UHGV virus genome: UHGV-1354680
DNA: 22,016 nt
DNA from: a virus
Direction: 5' to 3' (one strand)
In this document: positions 3,269-6,399 of the stretch, one piece after another
How positions within the stretch are numbered: the stretch's first letter is position 1
Layout of the letters: each line of letters opens with the position of its first letter
Notes under the pieces: generated by a model
Told to the model about the DNA's origin: nothing
Databases searched by the model: none
What the model saw: the letters and a program-made list of their open reading frames with translations, nothing else
Made by a program: the position numbers and the translations under genes

Positions 3269-4201
3269 ATGGACAACGACAAAATTGATCAACACAGCGA
3301 CGAAATTGAAGTTGAGAGCGAAGAAAAAGAGCGCGGTAAAAAAATAGAAATAGATGAAGACCGACTCCCCTCCCGGGCGATGGCAATTCATGAGCATATC
3401 CGCCAGGATGGTGAAAAAGAGCTGGAACGCGACGCAATGGCGCTACTGTGGTCAGCCATTGCGGCGGGCCTGTCGATGGGCGCTTCGCTACTGGCAAAAG
3501 GGATATTTCATGTCGAACTGGAAGGCGTGCCGGGCAGCTTCTTGCTGGAGAATCTCGGTTATACCTTTGGTTTTATTATCGTCATAATGGCCCGCCAGCA
3601 ATTATTTACCGAAAACACCGTAACTGCGGTACTACCCGTCATGCAAAAACCGACAATGAGCAACGTCGGCTTACTTATGCGGTTATGGGGCATCGTGCTG
3701 CTGGGTAATATTCTCGGGACAGGTATTGCTGCGTGGGCATTTGAATATATGCCTATCTTCAATGAAGAAACTCGCGATGCATTTGTCAAAATCGGCATGG
3801 ATGTGATGAAGAACACCCCCAGCGAGATGTTTGCCAACGCGATCATTTCCGGCTGGCTGATCGCCACTATGGTATGGATGTTTCCTGCAGCGGGTGCGGC
3901 AAAGATTGTGGTGATTATATTGATGACCTGGCTTATTGCCCTGGGTGACACCACCCACATCGTTGTCGGTTCTGTTGAAATCCTCTATCTGGTGTTTAAC
4001 GGCACGCTGCACTGGAGCGATTTCATCTGGCCCTTCGCACTACCTACTTTAGCGGGGAACATCTGCGGCGGCACCTTTATCTTCGCGTTAATGAGTCATG
4101 CACAGATTCGTAACGACATGAGCAACAAGCGCAAAGCAGAAGCACGTCAAAAAGCAGAACGTGCGGAAAACATTAAGAAAAATGATAAAAACCCGGCATA
4201 A
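3269..4201 (+). CDS. yfdC: inner membrane protein YfdC, formate/nitrite transporter (FNT) family
   Basis: 310 aa with multiple hydrophobic segments and a charged N-terminus; sits between mlaA and argW as in the E. coli map. Confidence 0.8.
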   Translation: MDNDKIDQHSDEIEVESEEKERGKKIEIDEDRLPSRAMAIHEHIRQDGEKELERDAMALLWSAIAAGLSMGASLLAKGIFHVELEGVPGSFLLENLGYTFGFIIVIMARQQLFTENTVTAVLPVMQKPTMSNVGLLMRLWGIVLLGNILGTGIAAWAFEYMPIFNEETRDAFVKIGMDVMKNTPSEMFANAIISGWLIATMVWMFPAAGAAKIVVIILMTWLIALGDTTHIVVGSVEILYLVFNGTLHWSDFIWPFALPTLAGNICGGTFIFALMSHAQIRNDMSNKRKAEARQKAERAENIKKNDKNPA

Positions 4202-4276
4202 ATGGCGAGGGTTTAAGCAATCGAGCGGCTGTGTACTTACCCCGTAGTCCATTAGCGGGTATACTCATGCCGCATT

Positions 4277-4351
4277 GTCCTCTTAGTTAAATGGATATAA
4301 CGAGCCCCTCCTAAGGGCTAATTGCAGGTTCGATTCCTGCAGGGGACACCA
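4277..4351 (+). tRNA. argW: tRNA-Arg (anticodon CCU)
   Basis: GTCCTCTTAGTTAAATGGATATAACGAGCCCCTCCTAAGGGCTAATTGCAGGTTCGATTCCTGCAGGGGACACCA. Acceptor stem GTCCTCT/AGGGGAC, anticodon loop CT-CCT-AA, T-arm GGTTCGATTCC, 3' CCA encoded. Confidence 0.9.
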
Positions 4352-4446
4352 TTTATCAGTTCGCTCCCATCCGTACCAGTCCGCAAAATTCCCTGAATAT
4401 CAAGCCTTCCGTAGATTGACAGTTCGTAATGGTTCGCGTCAGATCG

Positions 4447-4476: not shown

Positions 4477-4512
4477 GTGGATAAAATAATTTTACCCACC
4501 GGATTTTTACCC

Positions 4513-5670
4513 ATGCTCACTGTTAAGCAGATTGAAGCAGCAAAGCCGAAAGAAAAACCATACCGCCTTCTCGATGGTAATGGCCTGTACCTTTATGTCC
4601 CTGTGTCAGGGAAAAAGGTATGGCAGCTTCGCTACAAGATTGACGGTAAGGAGAAAATCCTGACCGTCGGAAAATATCCGCTTATGACTTTGCAAGAGGC
4701 AAGGGATAAAGCATGGACTGCGAGGAAAGACATCTCGGTTGGCATCGATCCGGTAAAGGCGAAAAAGGCTTCGTCTAACAACAATTCCTTTAGTGCGATT
4801 TACAAGGAATGGTACGAGCACAAGAAGCAGGTCTGGTCAGTAGGATATGCAACTGAACTTGCAAAAATGTTTGATGACGACATTTTACCTATCATCGGCG
4901 GTCTTGAGATTCAGGATATTGAGCCGATGCAACTGCTGGAAGTAATCCGCAGATTTGAAGATCGCGGCGCAATGGAGCGAGCCAACAAAGCACGCAGAAG
5001 ATGCGGCGAGGTTTTCCGTTACGCTATTGTCACCGGAAGGGCTAAATATAACCCGGCACCTGACCTTGCAGACGCCATGAAAGGATACCGCAAGAAGAAC
5101 TTCCCGTTTCTTCCTGCAGACCAGATCCCGGCATTCAACAAAGCACTGGCAACATTTTCAGGAAGTATCGTATCGCTCATTGCGACCAAAGTTTTACGCT
5201 ACACAGCCCTAAGAACAAAAGAGCTTCGTTCCATGCAATGGAAGAACGTCGATTTTGAAAACAGGATTATCACCATCGACGCCAGTGTGATGAAGGGACG
5301 CAAAATTCATGTGGTCCCGATGTCGGACCAGGTGGTTGAACTTCTCACTACGCTAAGCTCAATCACTAAACCAGTATCAGAGTTTGTTTTTGCCGGGCGC
5401 AACGATAAGAAGAAGCCAATCTGCGAGAACGCGGTACTGCTTGTGATCAAACAAATCGGCTATGAAGGTCTGGAAAGCGGTCACGGATTCAGGCATGAAT
5501 TCAGCACGATTATGAACGAGCACGAATGGCCCGCTGATGCTATTGAAGTGCAACTGGCACATGCCAACGGCGGATCTGTGCGCGGGATTTACAACCATGC
5601 TCAGTATCTCGATAAGCGCAGAGAAATGATGCAGTGGTGGGCGGATTGGCTTGATGAAAAGGTGGCATAG
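4513..5670 (+). CDS. intS: P4-type tyrosine integrase
   Basis: Translation MLTVKQIEAAKPKEKPYRLLDGNGLYLYVPVSGKKVWQLRYK… with a C-terminal catalytic region (…HGFRHEF…HANGGSVRGIYNHAQY). ATG at 4513 gives 385 aa, the length remembered for argW-associated IntS; the track start at 4477 is GTG. Confidence 0.85.
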   Translation: MLTVKQIEAAKPKEKPYRLLDGNGLYLYVPVSGKKVWQLRYKIDGKEKILTVGKYPLMTLQEARDKAWTARKDISVGIDPVKAKKASSNNNSFSAIYKEWYEHKKQVWSVGYATELAKMFDDDILPIIGGLEIQDIEPMQLLEVIRRFEDRGAMERANKARRRCGEVFRYAIVTGRAKYNPAPDLADAMKGYRKKNFPFLPADQIPAFNKALATFSGSIVSLIATKVLRYTALRTKELRSMQWKNVDFENRIITIDASVMKGRKIHVVPMSDQVVELLTTLSSITKPVSEFVFAGRNDKKKPICENAVLLVIKQIGYEGLESGHGFRHEFSTIMNEHEWPADAIEVQLAHANGGSVRGIYNHAQYLDKRREMMQWWADWLDEKVA

Positions 5671-5673
5671 CGC

Positions 5674-5746
5674 CACCTACATCCCTGGGCAATCATCAAA
5701 CTAACCTGCACGCGCATCGTTGATGATGTAGGTGATCACCACAAAT
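5674..5746. repeat. long imperfect inverted repeat
   Basis: cacctacatc…aatcatcaa // ttgatgat gtaggtg: 10-bp outer and 8-bp inner arms around a ~20-nt loop. No U-tract follows on either strand, so it is not a clear intrinsic terminator. Confidence 0.4.
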
Positions 5747-5769
5747 ACAGGTCGAGAAGTCTCAGAGGC

Positions 5770-6066
5770 CTAATTCTTGTCAGGAATCCTCTCCCTCTTT
5801 CCGTTATCCAGATTTTCCAGATGCGGTTGCGGGTATGTCAGGTAACGCTTAATTCTGAACTCACCATCAGTTGCACAAACCAGCAATGAGCCATCACATG
5901 GGTTCAAAGATGCATCAACGACAAAGAGAGCGCCACTTAGGATGCCTTCCCGGTAGTGTGTTGCCCCCGTTTTCATGAAGTAGGTAGCCACTGGCCTCGA
6001 TATGATACGCTTGTCGATCGATATGTGCTCCTCTATGCAGTCTTGTGCAGGACTGGGGAATCCCAT
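5770..6066 (-). CDS. UmuD'-like (S24 LexA/UmuD-fold) protein lacking the N-terminal arm and the serine nucleophile motif; ends at an in-frame TAG
   Basis: From the ATG at 6066: MGFPSPAQDCIEEHISIDKRIISRPVATYFMKTGATHYREG…DGEFRIKRY… is colinear with E. coli UmuD residues 25-100 (GFPSPAADYVEQRIDL…ATYFVKASGDSM…DGEFTVKKL). GGAGGT lies 5 nt upstream of this ATG. The 64 upstream codons of the 162-aa track ORF cover the SD and LexA box and are Y/H-rich, so they are treated as 5' UTR. Confidence 0.7.
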   Translation of the reverse strand: MGFPSPAQDCIEEHISIDKRIISRPVATYFMKTGATHYREGILSGALFVVDASLNPCDGSLLVCATDGEFRIKRYLTYPQPHLENLDNGKRERIPDKN

Positions 6067-6083
6067 GATGCACCTCCGATAAT

Positions 6084-6103
6084 CGCTGTATGCACATACA
6101 GTA
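6084..6103. promoter_or_regulatory. LexA box (SOS operator) upstream of the UmuD'-like gene
   Basis: CGCTGTATGCACATACAGTA has an exact CTGT-N8-ACAG core, centred about 28 nt upstream of the ATG at 6066 and next to a possible promoter (TTGAAC…AATAAT on the minus strand). Confidence 0.7.
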
Positions 6104-6294
6104 ATTATTTGTTGGTGGCGGAGTTCAACAAGAATGGAGTATGCTTTTGCTAAGCACGCGAATGCGTATAGGGAATTTTTTGAGTGGTAGAAGTACGAGT
6201 GTAAGACTGAATGATAGACACGCAAGACCATGGAGACTTGAATGTACATGGAAATCAATGAGACTCTAACTTTACCTACCTATAGGGGTCACTG

Positions 6295-6381
6295 ATGAAT
6301 AGCAAAATTGTAGTTGCAATTAACATCGTCGCGTTTTTGCTTCTGGTTTACTTCGTAAACAAGCACCACCCATTCATGTAG
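6295..6381 (+). CDS. hypothetical 28-aa hydrophobic peptide (candidate single-pass membrane peptide)
   Basis: ATG at 6295 preceded by AGGGGT with 5-nt spacing. Translation MNSKIVVAINIVAFLLLVYFVNKHHPFM, stop TAG 6379-6381. Below the 60-aa ORF-track cutoff; no homology evidence. Confidence 0.3.
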   Translation: MNSKIVVAINIVAFLLLVYFVNKHHPFM

Positions 6382-6399
6382 CCATCCATGGCTGCATCA

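Follow-up and report, generated by a model that had tools for sequence, protein, structure and literature searches.

UmuD carries a 24-residue N-terminal arm that is removed by RecA-stimulated self-cleavage, and HumD is made without this arm. P1 HumD, the founding member of its family, was reportedly characterised in 1999 and is said, in the title of a paper by McLenigan et al. (1999), to substitute for UmuD′. According to the note in the P1 record, the protein ‘functionally complements E. coli UmuD′’; such complementation is reported for P1 HumD (Ser type) only. The P1 protein (129 aa) starts MGFPSPA with no cleavable arm, carries the general-base Lys and has Ser at the position of UmuD Ser60 (ADSHH); its gene stands alone, with no umuC partner, and has a LexA box ~35 nt 5′ of the ATG. 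P1 is a plasmid prophage, in which humD lies beside phd-doc and not beside tail genes. HK140 gp28, N15 gp26, phiKO2 gp23 and the HK639 protein form a Thr-type subgroup, all intact (128–129 aa), with the motif GATHYREGI and an SGEFDD tail, and their genes close the late region, downstream of the tail-fibre genes; that of HK140 abuts attP and int. Intact HumD proteins differ from UmuD in an extra conserved tail of ~10 residues, SGEFDDCPVM having no UmuD counterpart.

The window (the whole stretch of DNA analysed, 22,016 nt) belongs to an Sf6-like (Lederbergvirus) prophage lying at argW of the E. coli chromosome, and contains a truncated copy of a gene of this type (Table 1). Its protein resembles P1 HumD in the MGFPSPA start without an arm, the stand-alone gene, the Lys and the upstream LexA box, but has Thr (GATHY) for Ser and amber codons at 99 and 122. 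It resembles the Thr-type proteins in motif and tail sequence (59–74% identity), but these are not truncated. The same double-amber allele, with the same upstream region and tailspike, is found in the P22-like phages APC_JM3.2 (ATN92737.1, ‘DNA polymerase V subunit’) and Huey (XPK41496.1, ‘UmuD-like protein’), which differ from the window in their integrase/att modules (dacD-side and ybhB-bioA-side, respectively).

Table 1 Features of the humD locus and its surroundings in the window.
Feature	Position	Strand	Remarks
tRNA-Arg(CCT), argW	4277..4351	plus	Single tRNA in the window
IntS-type integrase	4513..5670	plus	385 aa from ATG 4513; convergent with the humD copy; matches Sf6 int
Natural family stop	5679..5677	minus	TAG
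Second premature amber	5703..5701	minus	TAG = codon 122; 99% of relatives have Glu
Cut-off 3′ part of ancestral 129-codon gene	5769..5677	minus	Still in frame; matches the HumD profile
First premature amber	5772..5770	minus	TAG = codon 99, premature relative to the HumD family; GAA/GAG (Glu) in close intact relatives
Truncated HumD-family ORF	6066..5770	minus	98 codons + TAG; Thr35 for UmuD Ser60, Lys73 for UmuD Lys97
Shine-Dalgarno GGAGG	6077..6073	minus	6 nt 5′ of ATG 6066
Putative LexA (SOS) box TACTGTATGTGCATACAGCG	6103..6084	minus	Core CTGT-N8-ACAG at 6101..6086; 35 nt 5′ of ATG
P22-type tailspike	6400..8295	minus	631 aa, from MSDITPN; tailspike annotated in APC_JM3.2, Huey and Louie

To the left of the prophage, fadL-mlaA-yfdC-argW shares 99.5% identity with E. 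coli. The part homologous to Sf6 begins at 4337, on the annotated attP core of Sf6, which places attL in the 3′ end of the argW tRNA gene. The integrase is 99% identical to those of four prophage loci (L011, L031, L066 and L069); the mechanically called integrase ORF begins at GTG 4477, ahead of ATG 4513. The humD copy is the sole feature between the integrase stop (5670) and the tailspike stop (6400), as a previous reading made from the sequence alone had described. This slot holds oac in Sf6, gtrA and gtrC in BTP1 and, presumably, gtrABC in P22. The same reading had treated the location as an open point and suggested comparing the slot across argW prophages; humD next to att, after a tail-fibre or tailspike gene, turns out to be usual for the family. 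The gene lies downstream of a tail-fibre gene in N15 and HK140 (where the annotated attP overlaps its last 30 nt) and in other P22-like prophages it comes after a tailspike gene and lies beside att. In L031, L066 and L069 the same slot holds an intact humD convergent with the 99%-identical argW integrase, and in L069 the DNA upstream of it also matches the N-terminal domain of the tailspike. Many IMG/VR prophage contigs stop exactly at the humD stop codon.

Profile searches place the window protein in the S24/UmuD family, and within it in HumD. The 98-aa product (MGFPSPAQDCIEEHISIDKRIISRPVATYFMKTGATHYREGILSGALFVVDASLNPCDGSLLVCATDGEFRIKRYLTYPQPHLENLDNGKRERIPDKN) scores 145.8 bits against NCBIfam NF051876 (‘HumD family translesion DNA polymerase’, an equivalog model of 129 positions with a curated cut-off of 120 bits), matching profile positions 1–97, with residue 1 of the ORF at profile position 1. 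The match continues past the stop at codon 99, the read-through form reaching 177.7 bits over positions 1–121. The NCBIfam UmuD model gives 68.7 bits, below its cut-off of 110; Pfam PF00717 (Peptidase_S24) gives 28.5 bits (cut-off 23.3; profile positions 8–83 of 116) and PHROG 811 (‘UmuD-like protein’) E 1.5e-36. In tblastn searches of phage genomes the closest matches were APC_JM3.2 and Huey (97.5–98.3% over the 121 residues compared), followed by HK140 gp28 (74.4%), N15 gp26 (65.6%), HK639 (64.5%), phiKO2 gp23 (59.5%) and HumD of P1, P7 and SJ46 (58.7%; for P1 over 121 aligned residues). The precedent of P1 HumD, which the sequence-only reading had named, thus applies. Profile and alignment evidence places the window gene in the HumD family, as a copy that encodes what is predicted to be a protein of pre-processed UmuD′ format.

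The product (N-terminus MGFPSPAQD) is colinear with UmuD from Gly25, as had been noticed from its first residues: the alignment to PDB 1umu (UmuD′; E 2.2e-15) starts at residue 1 of the ORF and at the first residue of the structure. Compared with E. coli UmuD/UmuD′ (PDB 1umu, 1i4v, 8gmt), the window protein belongs to the same S24 fold family and has the equivalent of Lys97, but lacks residues 1–24 and the Cys24-Gly25 site, has Thr at Ser60, and has a loop one residue shorter than KASGDSM. No Ala/Cys-Gly cleavage site with a preceding N-terminal arm is present, the protein beginning at the Gly.

KASGDSM of UmuD reads KT-GATHY in the window protein, HMMER and MAFFT agreeing on Thr beneath Ser60, and the other two frames over this DNA do not encode GDSM; the Ser nucleophile of the S24 Ser-Lys dyad is absent by both alignments and from those two frames. 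The general-base context is retained (EFRIKR, compared with EFTVKK in UmuD), with Lys73 aligned to Lys97. Both observations stand as originally made, but the serine loss is not novel. Among the 120 best homologues from a search of 5.8 billion proteins, the Ser60 column holds Thr in 107, Ser in 11 (P1 type, ADSHH) and another residue in two, and the Lys97 column holds Lys in 114; GATHYREGI is a HumD family motif. At the nucleophile position the majority of HumD proteins therefore carry Thr in place of Ser, with a hydroxyl residue and the Lys both conserved, which raises the question of why a protein that needs no self-cleavage retains a Thr/Ser-Lys dyad. One possibility is that the Thr-Lys pair in pre-processed HumD might be catalytic, for example in trans-cleavage of host UmuD, rather than structural.

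The start codon agrees with the family: Met occupies the start column in 120/120 aligned relatives, followed by Gly in 117/120 and then Phe. The ATG-GGA-TTC-CC start, the GGAGG and the LexA box are common to relatives, as is the cassette ATCGGAGGTGCATCATG. Among the relatives examined, the layout seen most often is the cassette of LexA box, ATCGGAGGTG and ATGGGATTCCC, in which the box lies 35 nt 5′ of the start codon. In the P1 record the corresponding site is annotated as a LexA binding site, ~20 nt before humD. In the HK140-like subgroup, unlike the window, the box lies ~280 nt upstream, with a small extra ORF between and a divergent dinI. CTGT-N8-ACAG occurs once in the 22-kb window, with 0.35 matches expected by chance anywhere in it. 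The SOS control proposed from the sequence alone is accordingly matched by a predicted operator at the usual family spacing. A simple sigma-70 scan upstream of the window gene found no promoter, and an Rfam scan of 5500..6500 gave no matches; the TTGATC...GATAAT-LexA box cassette of relatives is partly altered in the window. By eye, the only promoter candidate upstream of the gene is a weak TTGTTG-16-AATAAT.

The ORF ends at codon 98, short of the full HumD length (~128–129 aa) and without the near-invariant C-terminal block FGVITYIINDARSGEFDDCPVM, which lies within the removed residues 99–129. Beyond codon 98 the frame reads TAG-ASETSRPVFVVITYIINDARAG-TAG-FDDCPGM-TAG, the premature stops being defined by codon comparison with L027, L031 and L003. 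The in-frame read-through of 121 codons noted earlier is real, and is homologous to the C-terminus of UmuD′/HumD. Intact proteins of 128–129 aa account for 96/120 of the best homologues, and 44/52 IMG/VR relatives are intact at 127–129 aa. In both alignments (A1 and A2) the residues from F108 to D125 are either invariant or conserved to 90% or more, and no block of the family is better conserved; relatives differ synonymously in its codons, which indicates constraint at the protein level. In the PDB search the read-through aligns to UmuD′ residues 123–136, the lost block matching the last hydrophobic strand of UmuD′, VFGVVIHVV. AlphaFold models were used just for locating this strand, both being weak (pLDDT 62.9, pTM 0.52 for an intact relative; pLDDT 51.6, pTM 0.34 for the 98-aa product), although the truncated product gave the poorer of the two, in keeping with inactivation. 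In the low-confidence model of the relative, the lost strand (residues 107–116) is the longest predicted. Missing from the 98-aa product are thus VFGVITYIIN, predicted to be the last core beta-strand, and the family tail SGEFDDCPVM. The literature consulted gave no usable structural detail on the UmuD′ C-terminus and no notes on N15 or phiKO2.

Exact-protein look-ups and a scan of IMG/VR yielded 27 full-length copies of the double-amber allele, plus a 5′-deleted remnant in Louie; the allele was found in 0 of 5,426 complete E. coli genomes, where the best matches were 77% identical. Differences among the full-length copies amount to 5 of 366 nt at most, none of them has an indel, and wherever the locus reaches the tailspike it is of one type (95–99% identical). 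This low divergence and the linkage to one tailspike type suggest that the 27 copies derive from one recent event. They occur in three attachment contexts: argW/yfdC (the window, L011 and L026, together with Louie), dacD-sbmC-yeeA (APC_JM3.2 type) and ybhB-bioA (Huey type). Huey-type copies retain 26–27 codons of the 3′ end of the argW-type integrase gene, suggesting that the argW arrangement is ancestral and that int modules were exchanged downstream. The start codon, the 98-codon ORF and the LexA core (CTG-N10-CAG) are intact in 27/27 full-length copies, and GGAGG has become TGAGG in eight Huey-type copies. Variable sites within the lineage cluster in the operator/RBS region (5 of about 14 in 37 nt); changes before the stop comprise three nonsynonymous and two or three synonymous, too few to weigh selection. 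In Louie, whose copy is a further decayed descendant of the allele, a 461-nt deletion (window 6362..5902) has taken the upstream region, operator, start and codons 1–55 with no replacement, and the remnant has gained a third stop.

Comparison of the window gene with intact relatives gives a pN/pS of 0.21, and comparison of intact pairs 0.20; synonymous sites are saturated against all intact relatives (pS ~0.72). This equality argues against long neutral decay and for recent stops; through most of its past the double-amber lineage evolved under constraint. Among the 46 columns with 95% conservation or more, the retained 98 residues depart from the family at 5 (R14H, L17I, A33T, L48F and R76L), and the 136 intact members do so at 0.56 on average (maximum 4). 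This excess is suggestive of decay, though partly expected for an isolated branch. In other P22-like prophages humD has been broken independently of the double-amber allele: that of BTP1 shows G2E, a frameshift and a stop at codon 29 while its LexA box remains perfect, that of E. coli S163-2 is ‘frameshifted’ according to PGAP, and that of L075 is also broken. The BTP1 virulence gene st313-td was considered as a possible humD remnant and rejected; it is STMMW_03531, which adjoins the cI repressor gene and is unrelated.

The window copy is probably a recently inactivated relic of a HumD-family gene, generated by two Glu-to-amber changes (codons 99 and 122). This is the most likely reading because the product has at most 98 aa, without the last core strand and the family tail, and the relic would persist by being carried along with its neighbours, the tailspike gene on one side and the int/att module on the other. 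In the intact relatives (128–129 aa), LexA would repress humD from an operator over or next to the promoter; DNA damage, by inactivating LexA, would allow HumD to be made, already in UmuD′ format, and HumD would then join host UmuC in a Pol V-like translesion polymerase. For the Thr-type majority, this Pol V role is proposed by analogy. The suggestion in the sequence-only reading that the gene could supply UmuD′ to UmuC is thus plausible for intact relatives and unlikely for the window copy, in which the two ambers remove residues 99–129; we infer that this copy has lost its function. That reading had also offered titration of host proteins, and the 98-aa product, as a mini-HumD retaining the N-terminal arm together with most of the globular domain, could in principle be an SOS-induced modulator that forms dead-end heterodimers with UmuD/UmuD′ or occupies UmuC or the RecA filament, with an anti-mutator or checkpoint-like effect. 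Such a role is unlikely. It would fit the start and LexA core kept in all 27 full-length copies without indels (with GGAGG altered in eight), the persistence of the allele in three int/att backgrounds (argW, dacD, ybhB-bioA), a first stop that leaves a clean ORF called as a gene by annotators, and the clustering of variable sites in the operator/RBS, which could reflect selection on expression level. However, at ~1% divergence within the lineage the absence of indels says little, and constant linkage to one tailspike type fits hitchhiking; Louie deleted promoter, start and the first 55 codons without replacement, and the strand lost is the longest in the relative's model and aligns with VFGVVIHVV of UmuD′. 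The second amber gives no sign of selection for a usable reading frame downstream, nothing favours an end at 98 aa, and other broken humD copies break at other points. That the fragment works specifically as a truncated UmuD′ mimic (N-terminal arm plus part of the globular domain, forming no proper dimer and poisoning or tuning Pol V assembly) is quite improbable; if true, it would be a phage-encoded anti-mutator or checkpoint factor.

Low, regulated production of a working 129-aa HumD by amber read-through, through a suppressor tRNA in host or phage or through codon context, is very unlikely, even though both premature stops are amber, the frame is perfect through 129 codons, and nucleotide identity to intact relatives is 0.77–0.81 after the stop compared with 0.70–0.75 before it. 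The natural stop is also TAG, so that suppression would extend the protein too; argW is the only tRNA gene in the window, double read-through would be very inefficient, near-invariant positions after the stop have changed (G109V and the E122 codon), and preservation of frame is expected anyway after a recent event. It is just as unlikely that the real product is longer, a UmuD-like protein left unprocessed and having an N-terminal arm of a new kind. The mechanical ORF reaches back to 6258, where the sequence-only reading had placed an ATG; the codon there is TTG (162 aa) and the first in-frame ATG is at 6249 (159 aa), and a long start is used in the annotation of Huey and in an NCBI E. coli record. 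Against this, the extension is confined to the double-amber lineage, the upstream DNA of relatives being unrelated, and it would contain the LexA box and GGAGG, which lie immediately 5′ of ATG 6066; the HumD profile and the invariant Met column (MGFPSP) begin at that ATG. The extension (MISMYIQVSMVLRVYHSV...) has no Pfam match, and for the 159-aa form (cluster P0002) the precomputed list gives PF00717 alone.

The HumD family, its SOS control, the pre-processed format and the double-amber allele itself are already in public databases and annotation. Discovery value is therefore small, the family being curated (NF051876, PHROG 811) and the allele already deposited in phage genomes, and the main use of the analysis is for annotation. 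The truncation is unflagged in APC_JM3.2 and Huey, the latter using a spurious long start, and their 98-aa and 159-aa entries (ATN92737.1 and XPK41496.1) represent a truncated, probably dead allele and should not be read as evidence of mutator lysogens. In BTP1, the humD pseudogene with its LexA box is absent from the annotation of the record.

The humD relic has three in-frame stops, every one of them TAG (amber), and each of the two premature ones (5770..5772 and 5701..5703) is consistent with a single G-to-T change in a GAG Glu codon. Among the 27 full-length humD alleles with amber codons at positions 99 and 122 (double-amber copies; loci L001, L002 and L008-L026 compared) there are ~14 variable sites, five of which lie inside the 37 nt carrying the candidate LexA box and the RBS, with just two in the other 300 nt upstream of the relic. 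Variants here include ACAG to GCAG in the LexA box of APC_JM3.2 and GGAGG to TGAGG in the RBS of the Huey group. This cluster could stem from a loosening of constraint, from a mutational hotspot at a hairpin or from selection acting on the level of expression.

Coordinates of humD-associated features in the window and in related loci
Feature	Position	Remark
In-frame stops of humD relic	window 5770..5772, 5701..5703, 5677..5679	all amber (TAG)
LexA box/RBS variable stretch	window 6077..6113	-11 to -47 relative to humD ATG
HumD tail/att junction region	window 5677..5710; L003 (HK140) 3360..3506; ends of many IMG/VR loci	
argW-type integrase 3′ remnant	L002 4400..4480; L018-L020 and L025, e.g. 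L018 4586..4663	Huey type
LexA box/dinI/gp27/humD region of HK140	L003 2410..3390	
BTP1 humD pseudogene	L005 (BTP1) 4001..4400; record NC_042346.1 18586..18990	

At the other end of the gene, the HumD tail (SGEFDDCPVM), which is absent from UmuD, is nearly invariant at the protein level, and exchange junctions of the int module fall within it or just past it. Differing att sites or prophage ends directly follow the tail in many IMG/VR loci (including L027, L034, L036 and L041-L044), and the attP annotated in HK140 shares the final 30 nt of humD. Homology of the window to APC_JM3.2 stops at 5687, and that to Huey at 5587. In Huey-type prophages, at the ybhB-bioA site, 26-27 codons of the 3′ end of an argW-type integrase are left downstream of the humD relic; this remnant is a scar from a replaced integrase module.

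HK140-type phages (HK140 and relatives L033-L046) have their LexA box ~280 nt ahead of humD. An ORF of 79 aa (gp27) adjoins the humD start, and a divergent dinI gene lies farther out, an arrangement suggestive of a small accessory cluster under SOS control.

In BTP1 (NC_042346.1), a humD pseudogene missing from the annotation of the record lies between gtrA and int. Its LexA box (TACTGTATTAATATACAGTA), just ahead of it, is still perfect, but the coding sequence has the change G2E, a stop codon at position 29 and a frameshift near the C-terminus. On the opposite strand the record places a hypothetical protein, STMMW_03931, over the pseudogene; this may be a spurious gene call.

Mechanical ORF starts in the window overshoot for both the tailspike (8296..8391) and the integrase (4477..4512). 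For the tailspike the most likely start is ATG 8295 (631 aa) rather than 8391, and for the integrase it is ATG 4513 rather than GTG 4477, giving an integrase of 385 aa, the same length as Sf6 IntS.
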